DNA of 63,589 nt, filler included, from an uncultured bacterium (GTDB lineage Bacteria > CAZDME01 > JAYEMH01), in NCBI GenBank assembly GCA_964506785.1. It is 3 parts of 3 records of this genome, joined end to end, with 100 filler letters (N's around TTAATTAATTAA, not from the genome) between each part and the next. Parts side by side here need not be neighbours in the genome. Positions count along the whole stretch, not along the records: positions 1 to 21,773 come from CAZDME010000017.1; 2 more parts are not named here. One strand, written 5' to 3'. The notes beneath the pieces were generated by a model. It did no database searches. It was not told the DNA's origin and saw only the letters and a program-made list of their open reading frames with translations. The number at the start of each line of letters is the position of its first letter. Position 1 is the stretch's first letter. This document shows, one piece after another, positions 6,683 through 32,372 of this stretch. A program made the translations under genes and the position numbers.

Positions 6683-9410
<2,728 letters not shown>

Positions 9411-9419
9411 AGTTTCTCT

Positions 9420-9448
9420 ATCGTATCTTTTAAAAAGAAAAGTGTCAA
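9420..9448 (-). promoter_or_regulatory. sigma70-type promoter of the DUF72 gene (near-leaderless)
   Basis: TTGACA-17-TACGAT on minus strand, 9 nt upstream of the ATG. Confidence 0.65.
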
Positions 9449-9454
9449 GAAATT

Positions 9455-9483
9455 TTGACAAAATATTTTTCTTGTGGTATAAT
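9455..9483 (+). promoter_or_regulatory. consensus sigma70 promoter driving riboswitch 1
   Basis: TTGACA-17-TATAAT with extended -10 TG. Confidence 0.9.
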
Positions 9484-9489
9484 TTGTTT

Positions 9490-9651
9490 GGAGTCGATAA
9501 AGGCAAACCTGTCGAAAGATAGAGGCGCAAAGTTACAGGCCTAAGTTACTGACTGATGGCTACAGCTAACTTGCCCCCGAAGGAAGAGATTGGGGTAAAA
9601 CCAGAAGGTGGCTTAGAACAGGACCAGTAATAGGGCAGCTGGACTGCCGAT
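9490..9651 (+). ncRNA. c-di-GMP-I (GEMM-I) riboswitch with about 70-80 nt insertion in P3
   Basis: CG-N5-GGCAAAC-CTGTC-GAAA-GATAG..GCGCAAAG..GGCCTAAG[TTACTG...CAGTAA]TAGG...TGCCGA; G20 and C92 equivalents present. Confidence 0.85.
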
Positions 9652-9702
9652 GGAAGAAGGAAGGTGATTGCAAGCCGCCTACTTTGTCGACTCCTTTTTT
9701 TA

Positions 9703-9731
9703 TTGACATTTCCCCGCCTTTTTCCTACAAT
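9703..9731 (+). promoter_or_regulatory. second sigma70-type promoter directly before the WecA-like gene
   Basis: TTGACA-17-TACAAT. Confidence 0.7.
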
Positions 9732-9742
9732 ACATGTATACT

Positions 9743-10774
9743 ATGAGTTCAATTCCCAGGGTTTTCCTTATAAGTGCTTTTGGCGCTTTATTGATTACTC
9801 CTTTTTTGGAGCAACTGGCGATAAAATGGAAGGTTTTAGATTTTCCCGACGAAAGGAAAATTCACAAAAAAGCTATTCCGCGTTTAGGCGGGGTAGCTGT
9901 TTTTATTTCCTTTCTATTTGCTTTAGGCAAGTTTTCTCTTGAAGTTTCCTCTCTCAAGGGGATAATGCTCGGCGGAGGATTGATTTTTTTAATCGGCCTC
10001 ATTGATGATGTCAGAGCTTTAGGGGCTAAGGTAAAGTTGGGCGGGCAGGTTATAGCGGCGCTTATTTTAATCCATCAAGGTATAATTTTATCCTTTTTCC
10101 CGGCCACTTTTTTAGGGAAGATGACTGCGGTAATTCTGACCATTGTTTGGCTGGTAGGGATTACCAATAGCTTGAATTTTCTTGATGGAATGGATGGCTT
10201 AGCCGCCGGGATGGCGGCTGTTGCCAGCTTGACTTTTTTAATTATTACTGTAAAAACTGACCAAATTTTTCTGGCTGTGGCCGCGTCGGCTCTTTTGGGC
10301 AGCTGTTTAGGTTTTTTACCATATAATTTTCATCCAGCCAGAATTTTCTTGGGTGATGCGGGAAGCACCTTTTTAGGTTTTATCTTAGCTAGTTTTGCCG
10401 TTATGGGCGGCTGGGCCGAGAAAAATTTCTTTGTTGCCCTGGGGACGCCGCTGGTTATCTTGGGCATTTTGGTCTTCGACTTAATTTATATCACTGTCAG
10501 CCGGATAAGTTTAGGTAAAGTAAAAAATTTCTGGCAGTGGATTGAATACGTCGGCCGGGATCATATCCATCATCGTTTATTGAATTTAGGCTTTAGTCAG
10601 CGCCAGACGGTTTTGACCATTTATTCAATCGGGATTTATTTAGGAATTAGCGGAGTAATTTTAAATGGAGCCGGCCCATTATGGGTGTTCCCGGTTTTTA
10701 TTCAGGTATTTCTCATGTTTATGGTAATTACTGTTTTAATGACAGCGGGACGCCGGAAGGTAAAAAACAATTAG
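9743..10774 (+). CDS. WecA/TagO-like undecaprenyl-phosphate GlcNAc-1-phosphate transferase (MraY family)
   Basis: RKIH..IPRLGG, GLIDD, NSLNFLDGMDGLA, IFLGDAGS, HIHHRL. Confidence 0.92.
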   Translation: MSSIPRVFLISAFGALLITPFLEQLAIKWKVLDFPDERKIHKKAIPRLGGVAVFISFLFALGKFSLEVSSLKGIMLGGGLIFLIGLIDDVRALGAKVKLGGQVIAALILIHQGIILSFFPATFLGKMTAVILTIVWLVGITNSLNFLDGMDGLAAGMAAVASLTFLIITVKTDQIFLAVAASALLGSCLGFLPYNFHPARIFLGDAGSTFLGFILASFAVMGGWAEKNFFVALGTPLVILGILVFDLIYITVSRISLGKVKNFWQWIEYVGRDHIHHRLLNLGFSQRQTVLTIYSIGIYLGISGVILNGAGPLWVFPVFIQVFLMFMVITVLMTAGRRKVKNN

Positions 10775-11190: not shown

Positions 11191-12003
11191 ATGTATGAAT
11201 CTTACTGGCACCTGAAAGAGAAACCATTTGAAAATACGCCTGACCCGCGATTTATCTACTATTCGATGGAACATGAAGAAGCTTTAATGCGGCTGCTTTA
11301 TGCCATTCGGGAGCGCAAAGGAGGTGCTATTTTGACCGGAGAATACGGCAGCGGGAAGACAATCATCAGCCGGGTGCTTCTCCAGAAGTTAGAGGAGTAC
11401 CGAAACTATAAGGTGGCTCTGATTGCTTATCCCCGTCTTGACCCGGTTGAATTTTTAGAGGAAATTTTATATCATTTAGGCGAAAGAAATTTACCTCAGG
11501 GAAAATCCGGCTTGCTTCACCGTCTGGAAGAACTACTTCATCAGAACATGAAAGAGGGTAAGGATACCGTTATTATTATTGATGAAGCTCATCTGGTAGA
11601 GAATTTGGAAACCTTTGAGGAGCTCAGGCTTCTTTTAAATTTCCAGCTTAACAACCGCTTTCTTTTAACCTTGGTTTTAATCGGGCAGCCGGAACTGAAG
11701 AATAAGATTAATCAACTTCCTCAATTTAAACAGCGGCTGGCAGTCCGCTACCATCTCATTCATCTGGATAAACGCGAGACCCGCAGATATATTGCCCACC
11801 GCCTGCATATAGCCGGAAATGACAGTTTCCTATTTACCTATGGGGCGACCAAGCTTATTTTTGAGAATTCCGGAGGTGCCCCCCGGGCGATAAATAATTT
11901 TTGCGATATGAGTTTACTGGTTGGTTTCACTAAGCAAACTCCAAAGGTGGGTAAGCGTATTGTCCGGGAAGTTATCAGCGACCTTGAGGGAGATTTTGCT
12001 TAA
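11191..12003 (+). CDS. ExeA/GspA-like AAA+ ATPase
   Basis: PFENTPDPRF, Walker A GEYGSGKT, IIIDEAH, LIGQPEL, GGAPRAIN. Confidence 0.92.
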   Translation: MYESYWHLKEKPFENTPDPRFIYYSMEHEEALMRLLYAIRERKGGAILTGEYGSGKTIISRVLLQKLEEYRNYKVALIAYPRLDPVEFLEEILYHLGERNLPQGKSGLLHRLEELLHQNMKEGKDTVIIIDEAHLVENLETFEELRLLLNFQLNNRFLLTLVLIGQPELKNKINQLPQFKQRLAVRYHLIHLDKRETRRYIAHRLHIAGNDSFLFTYGATKLIFENSGGAPRAINNFCDMSLLVGFTKQTPKVGKRIVREVISDLEGDFA

Positions 12004-13310
12004 TGGTTAAGCTTTCCGATATTATTAAAAAACAGGTTAAGGCCCAAAAAGAAAAACTAGCGGCGCAAAAAGAGAAAACAACCGAGGAAACCCCGCCTTC
12101 AGCAAAAATTTCCGCACCTTCCCGTTCTTCGCTAAGAATTTCTGAAACGGTAAAAAATAAAGAAATTTCCAGGAAAACCCTGCCGTATAGAGAGGCCGGC
12201 CTTAATCAGGTAAGAATATCTGAAAAAATAAAAGAAAAAATCAGTCAGAATCCCAAAGAGAAAAAAGAACCTTTCAGGGTTCATCTCTCCGGGCCGATAA
12301 AAGAAGGTGATAAGGAAAGACAAAAGGCCTATAAAGAGGTAGAAGCAAAAATCAGCGCTTTCCGTCTGGCTCAAATCGTTCGCGAACGAGAACAAGCAGA
12401 TGAATCCCCGGGGAAATTTTATGAAGAGTCCTTGAAAAAAATTTTAGTTTTCTGGGAGAGGCTGGAGAGAAAAGAAAATCTGGATTTTAGCCCGCTTAAA
12501 GAAATAGCTGCTTTGTTTCATAAAGCTTTAAAAAATAGTCCGGCCATTTTAGCCAATTTGGCAAAGGACTATCCAGCCGATAATTACCTTCCCTATCATT
12601 CGCTCAATGTAGGTCTTGTTGCCGTTGCTTTGGGATTGGGGCTACAATGGGGTGGCGAGCGTTTAGAGGATTTGGCTCTGGCGGCTCTTCTACATGATAT
12701 CGGGATGAATGAGATTCCTAAAGAGATTTATTTAAAGAGAGAGTTTCTTAAAGGCAATGAGCGAATCAGAATCAATGAGCACCCAAAAAATAGTGTGCAA
12801 ATGATTGAAAAAGCCGGTTCTTTCGATGAAAACGTTACCAGGATTGTCTTTCAGCATCACGAACGTTCCAACGGTCAGGGCTATCCGCAAAGGCTGCAAG
12901 AAAAAGATATTCATCCCGGGGCCAGAATTGTCGGCCTGGCGGATACCTTTGAAGCCATCACTCATCCCCGTCTATATCATAAAGTCCGGCTTCCCTATGA
13001 TGCTTTAAGCGAACTCATTGACCAAAAAAAAGGCGAATTTGATAAAATTGTTTTAAAAGCTCTTATCCAGGAGATAACTTTTTATCCCCTGGGAAGTTTT
13101 GTTGAACTTAATACCGGAGAAGTTGCCCTGGTAGAACGGACTCTGGTAGAGTATCCCACCCGGCCTAAAGTTAAAGTGCTGATAAGCGAAGGCGGGGAGA
13201 AGCTTGACCCTCCCCGGGAAGTTAACCTTCATCAAGAAAGACTCCTTTATATTCAAAGACCTATTTCTGCCCCGGTTGGAACGGAGAAAAGTCCAGCTTT
13301 CCCCATTTAG
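12003..13310 (+). CDS. HD-GYP domain c-di-GMP phosphodiesterase with long charged N-terminus
   Basis: HSLNV, LLHDIG, HHERSNGQGYP, ADTFEAIT..R. Confidence 0.9.
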   Translation: MVKLSDIIKKQVKAQKEKLAAQKEKTTEETPPSAKISAPSRSSLRISETVKNKEISRKTLPYREAGLNQVRISEKIKEKISQNPKEKKEPFRVHLSGPIKEGDKERQKAYKEVEAKISAFRLAQIVREREQADESPGKFYEESLKKILVFWERLERKENLDFSPLKEIAALFHKALKNSPAILANLAKDYPADNYLPYHSLNVGLVAVALGLGLQWGGERLEDLALAALLHDIGMNEIPKEIYLKREFLKGNERIRINEHPKNSVQMIEKAGSFDENVTRIVFQHHERSNGQGYPQRLQEKDIHPGARIVGLADTFEAITHPRLYHKVRLPYDALSELIDQKKGEFDKIVLKALIQEITFYPLGSFVELNTGEVALVERTLVEYPTRPKVKVLISEGGEKLDPPREVNLHQERLLYIQRPISAPVGTEKSPAFPI

Positions 13311-13398
13311 CATGCTATATTTGTGCCTATGCGGCGCAAAAGGGATGTTCCTCAATACAATTCTTTTCCCTCTTACTCTCTAAATAGTATTTATCGTT

Positions 13399-14604
13399 AT
13401 GAGTGAAAATTCAGAACTTACCGGGATTGTCCTGGCAGTTAAAATCAAAGTGCTGCATATTGTCACCAGATTAGGCCCTGGGGGAGTTACCGAAACCCTT
13501 AGGGCTTTATCTAAATATGTAAATAAAGGAGCATTTGAATTCTTTTTTGTTTCCGGCCTGGAAAATGATTTGAAATTAGACAAATCTAAAAAGGCCATAG
13601 CCGGAGGGATGAATTTAAAAATTATTCCCGGATTGAAGAGAAATATTAATCCCTGGAGCGACCTTTTAAGTTTAATCAGTTTATATCTTTTTATAAAAAA
13701 AGGTAATTTTGATATTGTCCATACCCATACTTCAAAGGCAGGCTTCCTGGGAAGGATTGCCGCCCGTCTGGCAAAGGTTCCGGTAACAATCCATCAGCCG
13801 CACGGTCATGTCTTTAAAGGAATGTTTGATTTTTTTACTACCAGGCTCTTTATCTTTCTTGAGAAAACAGCCGCTTTAATTACCGATAAAATTATTACCG
13901 TAACCCGGCTTGGCAAAGAAGAACATATCCGCTATGGCATTGCCTCTCCGGATAAATTTATAGTTATTCCCAGCGGGATAGATTTAGAAAGATTCTTAAA
14001 AGTAGAAGTTGATATAAAAAAGGGAAGAAGAGATTTAGGGATTGAAAATGAATATCCAATCGTCGGGACAGTAGCTCATCTGGTAAAGCGAAAAGGCTAT
14101 TTATATTTACTTAAAGCCATTTCCCAGGTTAAGAAAATTCATTCTAAAATAAAGGTTCTTATTGTCGGCGAAGGTGCTCTCCGTCCGCATTTAGAAAAAC
14201 AGGTCAAAAAAATGGGGCTGGAGAGAAATTTTCTTTTCCTGGGAGAAAGAGAAGATGTAGAGGTCATTTATCCGCTTTTAGATTTATTCGTTCTTTCCTC
14301 AGTCAACGAAGGGATGGGCCGGGTTTTGATTGAAGCCATGGCTTCCGGGAGGCCGGTGGCAGCGGCCAGGATTATGGGAATACCGGAGCTGGTAATAGAC
14401 GGCCTGACGGGGAGATTGGCTTCCCCTAAAGATTCGGATGCCCTGGCAGAAGCAATAATTGATTTGCTGGGCGATAAAGAGAAATTAAGTAAGATGGGGC
14501 TAGCCGCAAAGAAAAAAGTAGAGGCATCTTCGCAATTTGACGATAAAGTAATGGTAAAAAGAATTGAAAGCCTGTATCAAGAGCTTACCAAGAGTATTTT
14601 TTAA
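13399..14604 (+). CDS. GT4 family glycosyltransferase (start uncertain)
   Basis: HTHTSKAG and EGMGRVLIEAMA. Confidence 0.92.
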   Translation: MSENSELTGIVLAVKIKVLHIVTRLGPGGVTETLRALSKYVNKGAFEFFFVSGLENDLKLDKSKKAIAGGMNLKIIPGLKRNINPWSDLLSLISLYLFIKKGNFDIVHTHTSKAGFLGRIAARLAKVPVTIHQPHGHVFKGMFDFFTTRLFIFLEKTAALITDKIITVTRLGKEEHIRYGIASPDKFIVIPSGIDLERFLKVEVDIKKGRRDLGIENEYPIVGTVAHLVKRKGYLYLLKAISQVKKIHSKIKVLIVGEGALRPHLEKQVKKMGLERNFLFLGEREDVEVIYPLLDLFVLSSVNEGMGRVLIEAMASGRPVAAARIMGIPELVIDGLTGRLASPKDSDALAEAIIDLLGDKEKLSKMGLAAKKKVEASSQFDDKVMVKRIESLYQELTKSIF

Positions 14605-16870: not shown

Positions 16871-16974
16871 CAACAATCATTTATAGCTGAGTTTAGACCG
16901 TGGCCTTTTTCGCTGGGATGTATTCGTATTTACCCTTAAAATATGGTATAATTATTATGGTTGAAAAAGAAAGA

Positions 16975-17131
16975 GCGAAAAAGGCAAACCTCGTTAGAGA
17001 CGATTCTAATGGGGGGCGCCACGGAAGAGACAAAGGTCTCTAACGGGGCAAACTGTTCGAAAGGATAGGACGCAAAGCTTCAGAGCCTAAGCCCTGAGTG
17101 GAAACAAAGGGTAAGGCTGTCAGCTGCCGAA
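16975..17131 (+). ncRNA. c-di-GMP-I riboswitch interrupted in P2 by a palindromic insert
   Basis: CG-AAAAA-GGCAAAC[insert]GGCAAACTGTTC-GAAA-GGATAGGACGCAAAGC..GCCTAAG-CCCT..AGGG-TAAGGC..CTGCCGA; extended -10 TGGTATAAT at 16944-16952. Confidence 0.85.
16989..17048. repeat. palindromic CCTCGTTAGAGAC...GTCTCTAACGGGG element with flanking GGCAAAC duplication
   Basis: 13-bp inverted arms; GGCAAAC at 16983-16989 and 17047-17053. Confidence 0.8.
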
Positions 17132-17166
17132 AACCAGAGAAAACTGAATATTGTAGTCGAGCTGAC

Positions 17167-17200
17167 AGAAGCCTATTCTTTCAAGAATAGGCTTTCTTTC
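17167..17200 (+). terminator. intrinsic terminator (expression platform of riboswitch 2)
   Basis: AAGCCTATTCTT-tc-AAGAATAGGCTT followed by TCTTTC. Confidence 0.85.
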
Positions 17201-17303
17201 TAAAAAGCAGAAGACGGAAGGCAGAGAAAGAAAAAACTTGCACCTACGAGGTGCAAGGATTTGGGGAAATAGAAGACAGAAAGCAGAAAACAAAGGGGAT
17301 AAA

Positions 17304-31581: not shown

Positions 31582-32372
31582 ATGAGGCTTACTTTTCGAA
31601 AAAAAGATAAAGTTGTTTTGGTCCTTGGCGGCGGTTCCGCCCGGGGACTGGCTCATATCGGGGTGTTAAAGGTTTTAAAACGCGAGGCAATTCCGATAGA
31701 TATGGTTGTGGGGACAAGCATCGGGGCGTTAATGGGAGCGGCTTTTTGTGCCGGTATAGATTTTTCCCTGTTGGAGAAGAAAACGCAAGGTATTTCCTGG
31801 AAAAACTTATTTGATTTCACCATCCCTCAACTCGGTTTAATTGAAGGCCGAAAGATGGAAAAATTAATAAAAGAGATAATTGGCGAACGCCATTTTAAAG
31901 ATTTAAAAATCCCTTTGGCCATTTTGCTACCGATATTAACAATGGAATAGAGGTGGTTTATCGCAGAGGGCTGCTCTGGCCGGTAATTAAAGCTAGCTGC
32001 TCTATTCCTGGAATTTTCAATCCGGTTAAACTGGATAAAAAGCTTTTAGTCGATGGAGCGGTGCTGCATAATGTAGCGACTAAAGTTGCCCGTGATTTAG
32101 GGGCAAACAAAATAATTGCCGTTAATGTCGGTTTCTATGTCCGAAAACAAGAAGTAAAAAACCTGCTGAATATTTTTCTTCAGGCTTGGCAGCTGCGAGG
32201 GCAGGAACTAAGCCGCTACCAGAATTTAGACGCAGAAGTAGTCATTAAAGTAAATCTGCCTGGCATAAGCCCGGTAGATTTTCATAGAGCGGCGGAGTGT
32301 ATTCAGCAGGGCGAAAAGGCCGCCGAGACGAAAATACCCCAGATTAAGAAACTTTTAAGAATCCGCCGATGA
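31582..32372 (+). pseudogene. patatin-like phospholipase split by a 1-nt frameshift near 31922-31926
   Basis: GGGSARG and GTSIG in the first frame; ATDINNG...ASCSIPG...DGA continues in the -1 frame. Confidence 0.85.

Follow-up and report, generated by a model that had tools for sequence, protein, structure and literature searches.

The window, by which we mean the whole 63.6-kb stretch of DNA that was analysed (63,589 nucleotides, filler included; G+C content 42%), contains two matches to the c-di-GMP-I riboswitch family RF01051 of Rfam. The first (riboswitch 1; Table 1) lies upstream of a WecA-like gene, and the second (riboswitch 2) lies at 17037-17131 with a score of 70.7 bits; the cut-off is 35. 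The protein product of the WecA-like gene also matched the wecA-like model TIGR02380, below that model's cut-off. Its start codon is ATG 9743 or ATG 9734, 33-42 nt past a run of seven T's, and it is likely the regulated gene. The gene cluster that follows on the same strand may be co-regulated with it; loci from several other phyla have their genes in the same order, WecA-like, AAA, HD-like. The upstream flank holds a divergent DUF72 gene and ligA. No Shine-Dalgarno-like sequence was seen before the WecA-like gene. Such sequences precede 14 of the 36 long ORFs by a crude count, and initiation without one therefore seems common here. For the HD_5/HD-GYP-like protein (12003-13310), the best NCBIfam match was a response-regulator c-di-GMP phosphodiesterase, below cut-off; if its gene is co-transcribed, it could provide negative feedback on c-di-GMP.

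Table 1. Features of the riboswitch 1 locus, in window coordinates
Feature	Position	Strand	Remarks
Promoter P1 (predicted)	9455-9483	+	TTGACA-17-TATAAT, 12/12, TG extension; predicted +1 ~G9490
Helix 5' arm	9490-9502	+	GGAGTCGATAAAG; transcript 5' end (predicted), P1 5' strand GUCG 9493-9496, linker AUAAA, pocket G9502
c-di-GMP-I (GEMM-I) aptamer	9492-9651	+	RF01051, 64.5 bits, full model 1-87
P3-tip insert, 76 nt	9551-9626	+	Rfam alignment; constrained fold
Purine-rich spacer, 30 nt, aptamer to 3' arm	9652-9681	+	
Helix 3' arm	9682-9694	+	CTTTGTCGACTCC; CUUUGU would emerge first and pair with linker; CGACUCC last, pairing with 5' end
U7 tract, putative termination point	9695-9701	+	Directly 3' of helix
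Promoter P2 (predicted)	9703-9731	+	TTGACA-17-TACAAT, 11/12; expected start ~9738
WecA/MraY-family (Glycos_transf_4) polyprenyl-phosphate sugar-phosphate transferase gene	9734-10774	+	PF00953, 1.3e-38
Downstream cluster	11191-14604	+	AAA ATPase (closest model XrtA/PEP-CTERM ATPase), HD_5 HD-GYP-like protein, GT4 glycosyltransferase

The original prediction had placed a consensus promoter upstream of riboswitch 1, with transcription starting near 9490, and a second promoter immediately after the T-run. Both promoter-like sites were found. P1, with a perfect match, puts the predicted start on the first base of the long-range helix described below, and P2 ranks with the best promoter-like sites of the window. 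Sites matching at least 11 of the 12 positions numbered four on both strands of the whole window, compared to 1.7 on average in 100 block shuffles. Initiation at P2 would leave hardly any leader ahead of ATG 9743 (or ATG 9734). On the minus strand, the DUF72 gene has a 10/12 promoter-like site at 9408-9448 whose -10 element ends ~10 nt before the ATG (9410); this spacing points to a near-leaderless mRNA, much like the one expected from P2 for the WecA-like gene.

The match of riboswitch 1 to the Rfam covariance model (E = 2.4e-10) covers all 87 model positions and was obtained again when 9400-9800 was searched separately; a weak-match Rfam scan of 9400-9800 gave nothing apart from the aptamer. 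The first aptamer hairpin (9508-9523) carries a GAAA loop at 9514-9517, and one of its pairs, C9508-A9523, was flagged as non-standard. The pairs of helix P3 (9531-9549/9627-9645) are all standard, and the receptor-like sequence CCUAAG ... UAGGG is present, giving the two-hairpin type 1 architecture, in which a GNRA tetraloop of the first hairpin is matched by a receptor in the second. The conserved pocket positions are all there: G9502 at model position 11, the CGCAAAG block, and C9647, at the position of the ligand-pairing C, in GCCGA. We take G9502 to correspond to G20 of Vc2. On the same assumption, the ligand-contact positions G20, A47 and C92 of Vc2 are occupied as expected, with G rather than A at position 20 presumably marking a c-di-GMP binder. 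A study of Vc2 (bioRxiv 10.1101/617340) describes G20 and C92 as contacting the ligand.

Model positions 1-11, an unpaired 5' strand ending in the G beside the first helix, fall on 9492-9502. For helix P1 there is a sole possible pairing, GUCG (9493-9496) with CGAU (9648-9651), made of three Watson-Crick pairs and one G-U pair (-1.6 kcal/mol). The insert at the tip of P3 was predicted by constrained folding to lengthen P3 into a long irregular hairpin (7+3+6+2+7 pairs). Compared to Vc2-type GEMM-I riboswitches (RF01051), the RNA is alike in its fit to the full covariance model, its GAAA tetraloop, its receptor-like CCUAAG and its pocket G, A and C positions; it differs in the 76-nt extension of P3, in a P1 of only four pairs, and in the pairing of its 5' pocket strand with a distal 3' strand. 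Judged by its sequence, 9492-9651 is a genuine c-di-GMP-I riboswitch, for which ligand binding is predicted. Two pairings that involve the spacer, 9672-9680/9606-9614 (9 bp, in the minimum-free-energy fold) and 9653-9661/9692-9700, were no better than chance, and the former was discarded as evidence.

The feature that sets this riboswitch apart is a helix that joins its two ends. A complementarity of 13 bp, with one G-U and followed by T7, had been reported between the 5' end and a strand 3' of the aptamer, and an inverted-repeat search returned the same two arms, of 13 nt each and 92% complementary, with 12 Watson-Crick pairs, one G-U (T/G in the DNA) and 179 nt between them. The pairing ends exactly at G9502-C9682, one base before the first aptamer helix, and is rich in G+C at the end adjoining the U-tract (GGAG/CUCC). 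Bases 9493-9502 thus have two places, one within the aptamer as P1 strand, linker and pocket G and the other within the 13-bp stem as part of its 5' arm. This agrees with the earlier claim that the helix masks the P1 5' strand and the linker up to G20: the segment aligned by Rfam to model positions 1-11, G9502 included, lies within the 5' arm. A helix of this span and a ligand-bound aptamer are mutually exclusive on paper.

The terminator scan listed no local hairpin before T7. In a duplex test, the last 14 nt paired with the 5' strand at -21.0 kcal/mol and with their next-best partner at -10.7 kcal/mol. A stem that is G+C-rich at its base (-19.4 kcal/mol), with U7 directly after it, is what an intrinsic (Rho-independent) terminator consists of. 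Unlike the canonical form, the structure has a 179-nt folded aptamer in place of a loop of 3-8 nt, and it was itself unlisted by the terminator scan. Ordinary hairpin-plus-U terminators occur elsewhere in the organism, for example 3' of riboswitch 2. This second riboswitch (region 16944-17205) precedes the gene for a 1527-aa DUF2341/LamG protein, and its local terminator, AGCCUAUUCUU...AAGAAUAGGCU followed by UUUCUUUCU, lies at ~17170-17203. Its likely promoter has the extended -10 sequence TGGTATAAT in common with P1. About 50 nt upstream of it, 16981-17010, with AAAGGCAAACC and a hairpin, resembles an aptamer's first half and was left unscored by Rfam.

A helix of at least 13 pairs ending at the T-run arose in 1 of 5000 dinucleotide shuffles of 9490-9694. 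The window holds 285 runs of at least six T's on its two strands, and a 13-pair helix within 300 nt was found at three of them; the other two contain four and five G-T pairs and lie inside coding sequence. The minimum-free-energy fold of the RNA (-71.0 kcal/mol by RNAfold, z = -3.25) includes the helix with pair probabilities of 0.87-1.0, and none of 200 shuffles folded as well. The only other all-Watson-Crick long-range helix beside a T-run in the window is a perfect 11-bp inverted repeat on the minus strand (32162-32310), CCTGCTGAATA/TATTCAGCAGG, with arm starts 149 nt apart, 127 nt between the arms and T6 directly after the 3' arm.

The energetics of the two forms are strongly unequal. The 13-bp duplex was computed at -19.4 kcal/mol, with -10.7 kcal/mol for its outer seven pairs (GGAGUCG/CGACUCC) and -1.7 kcal/mol for its inner six, compared to -1.6 kcal/mol for the four pairs of P1. 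Folded whole, the RNA reached -66.5 kcal/mol with the helix and both aptamer hairpins, and -52.2 kcal/mol with the consensus aptamer and P1 enforced. The helix form is predicted by RNAfold to be 14-19 kcal/mol more stable than the aptamer form. Both aptamer hairpins are compatible with the helix, and only P1 and the junction must yield to it. For RNAs with 3' ends at 9651-9670, that is, before the 3' arm exists, the aptamer fold lies 4-6 kcal/mol above the predicted minimum. Since the helix form is so much more stable than the aptamer form, any switch here would be purely kinetic, and it could be leaky or always off. In longer transcripts, the predicted probability of the helix fell to 0.02 for 9490-9800 and was 0.99 again for a transcript ending at 9900. 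A terminator-like hairpin with a GUUUUUAUUU tail (9871-9908; 11 pairs, six of them G-C) lies within the WecA-like ORF ~140 nt past its start; it overlaps codons for an IPRLGG-type motif and may be a by-product of coding.

We searched for orthologous loci with the WecA-like protein as anchor. From genome contigs, 80 of 439 relatives were kept (best 54% identity), and from metagenome contigs 80 of 410, comprising one identical contig (L081) followed by proteins of at most 55% identity. A pattern scan of these 160 loci found the riboswitch locus in the identical contig and in none of the 159 others; 11 further pattern matches were not aptamer-like on reading. No c-di-GMP-I match was found by Rfam in loci L001-L020. 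Four sequencing runs were compared with the locus. A near-identical strain contig, from another study's run, showed three differences in 2.1 kb, none of them in 9490-9701, and is uninformative for that region; the same four runs contained many unrelated riboswitch cores that matched 9495-9545 only. No orthologous locus that could reveal covariation of the 13-bp helix was found in the collections searched. The LigA protein is at most 61% identical to the group of genome G049, and the phylum of that group was searched across 31 genomes; the Atlas cluster of LigA is mostly Omnitrophota. RF01051 matches occurred in 27 of the 31 genomes, none longer than 92 nt. The phyla of genomes G079, G001, G056 and G059 were searched as well and comprised 1, 9, 2 and 5 genomes, respectively.

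We then turned to c-di-GMP-I riboswitches at large. RF01051 searches yielded 180 extracted places (115 of 116 plus 65 of 65). Of these, 176 were examined, making 178 with the window's two. Seven places were omitted (three below cut-off, three at contig ends and one unfetched), one lay in no locus, and four were too short. In a test for ungapped helices of this type, the longest reached 10 bp in 112 comparators and riboswitch 2, and 11 bp, rich in A/U and G-U pairs, in 64 more; the best comparators in this test were weak (-1.9 to -9.1 kcal/mol). Under a strict duplex test applied to the 178 riboswitches and 324 U-tracts, 9490-9701 alone passed clearly, and G110:C2 passed weakly (-10.2). The energy of the duplex between 5' and 3' strands was dropped as a measure because many conventional OFF switches score well, the 3' strand of their terminators being complementary to the P1 5' strand by design. 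The commonest designs were a terminator whose 5' half is the 3' side of the aptamer (ON; e.g. G052 and G046) and a local terminator with an antiterminator (OFF; riboswitch 2 included).

On a looser reading, three comparators have the same enclosing layout with unrelated helix sequences. The helix of G335:C81:11084-11160 has 16 bp, extends over the linker and the pocket G as well as the P1 strand, and stands ten bases ahead of a U7. That of G312:C22:5941-6037 comes in two parts, with 7 inner bp on the P1 strand and 10 outer bp before the U's, and the tandem neighbour of this riboswitch, G312:C22:6159-6253, is laid out in the same way. A ribosome-binding site and an ATG lie within ~31 nt of the U-tract of G312:C22:5941-6037, leaving no room for a promoter, and its terminator must therefore be conditional or passable. 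This tandem as a whole (L300; G312:C22:5941-6253, minus strand) has a long-range helix and a U-tract for each riboswitch, and an ORF resembling a signal-peptide protein begins ~31 nt past the second U-tract. One further case, G026:C1:115402, was ambiguous as to this layout, and none of the four riboswitches of G135, read individually, was similar. Two other comparators have a U-run directly after P1 and then a second, ordinary terminator: L173 (G099:C9:30062-30145), with a P1 of eight pairs, and L184 (G008:C101:15020-15104), with one of about seven. This arrangement may be a direct OFF design.

The original prediction offered two options for 9490-9701, a long-range terminator blocked by the ligand or a discrete RNA. 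We favour the first, at a probability of about one half: a kinetic transcriptional ON riboswitch for c-di-GMP whose terminator stem is built from the 5' strand of the aptamer itself. From the anatomy we infer the following course of events. Transcription would start at about G9490 and the aptamer would fold; some 30 nt of further synthesis, together with the RNA still inside the polymerase, would then provide a time window for ligand binding. Without ligand, the linker with the pocket G, AUAAAG (9497-9502), would remain single-stranded and act as a toehold for CUUUGU (9682-9687), the first part of the 3' arm to emerge, followed by CGAC and then UCC. The helix would zip outward, displace the weak P1 and complete GGAG/CUCC as the U-tract is made. 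RNA polymerase would terminate at about 9701, releasing a 212-nt RNA whose pocket is closed and whose two ends are locked together in the helix. Bound c-di-GMP would hold the pocket G and the linker in the junction, stabilise P1 and hide the toehold. Only GGA/UCC would then be left to pair, and these bases leave the polymerase last, presumably too late for termination. With its toehold hidden by the ligand, the stem would not be completed in time, and the polymerase would read through into the WecA-like gene and perhaps the whole exopolysaccharide cluster with its HD-GYP-like gene. P2 would add transcription that is independent of the ligand.

The ON-switch option fits the anatomy: a continuous helix over P1 and the pocket G that is G+C-rich beside the U-tract and has no local alternative, together with a counterpart of the layout in G312. 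c-di-GMP is a known inducer of exopolysaccharide production, and the ON direction for this reason fits the gene content. Several points weigh against an ON switch. A stem that closes a 179-nt insert is a non-canonical intrinsic terminator. The near-consensus P2, directly 3' of the U-tract, would make the riboswitch dispensable for transcribing the gene, and a gene without a Shine-Dalgarno sequence suits a short-leader mRNA from P2. No orthologous locus was found in the collections searched, and 9490-9701 alone passed the strict duplex test clearly among the 178 riboswitches.

A close known parallel is the pilM 3',3'-cGAMP ON riboswitch of Geobacter metallireducens. According to PMC9262584, the pilM ligand has been demonstrated to block a terminator in which a residue of the pocket is sequestered, and related cyclic-dinucleotide switches are described there as kinetic. 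The two systems share the aptamer superfamily and, in the reading proposed here, would share the mutual exclusion of terminator and bound aptamer, the sequestration of a ligand-contact residue and a kinetic decision. The pilM terminator pairs the aptamer's 3' side, with the P1 3' strand and the pocket C, to a nearby strand across a short loop, and the platforms of G052 and G046 look alike. Unlike that of pilM, the putative terminator here uses the 5' strand and holds the whole aptamer (179 nt) inside its stem; in P-A-T-H terms this is [P-H] versus [A-H] (PMC9262584).

Because P2 frees the gene from the riboswitch, the 212-nt RNA stays alive as a real product in its own right; we hold this to be the main rival, less likely than the ON switch. 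Here P1 would drive a self-contained RNA gene whose transcript always terminates at U7, and the WecA-like gene would be transcribed from P2 only. The RNA, sealed at its ends and hence stable, could act in trans or as a ligand-dependent conformer. This would account for the two promoter-like sites that bracket the unit, both among the four best of the window, for a helix far stronger than P1, and for a gene that has no Shine-Dalgarno sequence and starts ~5-10 nt past the predicted P2 start. Precedents exist in the Vc2-containing small RNAs of Vibrio cholerae (bioRxiv 10.1101/617340) and in the merRNA of Bdellovibrio (PMC3627812). Against it, the complementarity is placed exactly against the pocket strand, which would be purposeless if the ligand never mattered, and only three pairs of the helix (GGA/UCC) lie outside the aptamer. 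In addition, expression of the gene behind the G312 unit, which shares the layout, requires read-through, and there is no known target for a trans-acting RNA.

The two precedents are partial ones. In V. cholerae, according to bioRxiv 10.1101/617340, promoters downstream of Vc2 account for most of the tfoY mRNA, and the transcripts from upstream are Vc2-containing small RNAs. The locus described here is similar in having a strong predicted upstream promoter, possible short riboswitch RNAs and a further promoter 3' of the aptamer. The Vc2 RNAs are, by the same account, not termination products and are stabilised by bound ligand, whereas here termination is proposed in the ligand-free closed form. 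The merRNA of Bdellovibrio bacteriovorus is likewise a discrete non-coding RNA with a c-di-GMP-I riboswitch, as the self-contained RNA would be; PMC3627812 describes it as massively expressed and without a conserved downstream ORF, and a sponge role is proposed there. Unlike merRNA, the RNA here has a gene within 33-42 nt, starting at 9734/9743, and its closed form is predicted not to bind ligand. The c-di-GMP sponge that had been suggested as one role of the discrete RNA is thus unlikely: the terminated RNA is by definition the form with its pocket closed, the pocket G being paired, and this form was the more stable by 14 kcal/mol in RNAfold. As the closed form is predicted to be unable to bind ligand, a sponge role would fail.

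A more improbable reading takes the helix as no terminator at all. It would act post-transcriptionally, protecting the ends of the RNA from nucleases or tuning ligand sensitivity as an anti-aptamer, and T7 would merely be A+T-rich DNA upstream of the P2 -35 box. T7 does abut this box (9703), where A+T-rich upstream elements are common, and runs of at least six T's are frequent in the window. The near-absence of the helix from the predicted fold of the 9490-9800 transcript, set against its return at 9900, fits as well, and bioRxiv 10.1101/617340 reports ligand-dependent RNA stability as demonstrated for Vc2. Three observations speak for termination instead: the 3' arm runs right up to the T-run and the stem is G+C-rich at that point, the hallmark of an intrinsic terminator; the other units with the enclosing layout likewise end in U-tracts; and no link between the helix and the start codon is visible.

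We give even less credence to a direct OFF switch, in which the outer seven pairs (GGAGUCG/CGACUCC) would replace P1 and be stabilised by the ligand, with termination at high c-di-GMP. L173 and L184, with their U-runs directly 3' of P1, could be taken as models for it, and the junction of two hairpins is able on its own to bind ligand weakly without P1, according to PMC9262584. The distance of 40 nt from the pocket C (9647) to the outer 3' strand would, however, disconnect P1 from the pocket, the inner six pairs up to the pocket G would be left without a reason, and the direction misfits the c-di-GMP induction expected for polysaccharide genes. That the complementarity is a functionless chance match seems to us barely credible: it is a single occurrence with no orthologue, in an RNA whose other 9-bp pairings are at chance level, but it was matched by only one shuffle in 5000, its arms coincide with the predicted +1 and T7, and analogous helices exist in other genomes.

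The expression platform of 9490-9701 is unusual, recurrent and apparently undescribed. No description of an aptamer-enclosing terminator was found in the literature searched. Riboswitch aptamers are well catalogued and expression platforms are not; according to a review (PMC10907184), the platforms are mostly left out of Rfam alignments. More broadly, and tentatively, we suggest that the locus represents a recurrent c-di-GMP-I platform, so far undescribed, in Omnitrophota/Ratteibacteria-like bacteria. In this platform the 5' pocket strand and a distal 3' strand would form a terminator that encloses the sensor, and the ligand would hide the toehold. The closed, ligand-free RNA may persist as a second output that reports low c-di-GMP. 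The conventional ON designs compared here build their terminators with the aptamer's 3' side, and this one would draw on the 5' side. If the ON-switch reading is true, intrinsic termination can use stem strands that are brought together by a pre-folded domain, and a ligand can control termination by masking a toehold within the pocket that it occupies. Such a switch would be useful for studies of co-transcriptional folding and for the design of synthetic switches, and it would connect c-di-GMP with the exopolysaccharide genes of an uncultured lineage rich in these riboswitches. Among the genomes surveyed, four of 1.5-2.6 Mb (G158, G333, G182 and G335) carry c-di-GMP-I matches at unusual density, with 13-19 in each, and several of these matches contain inserts of 30-80 nt.
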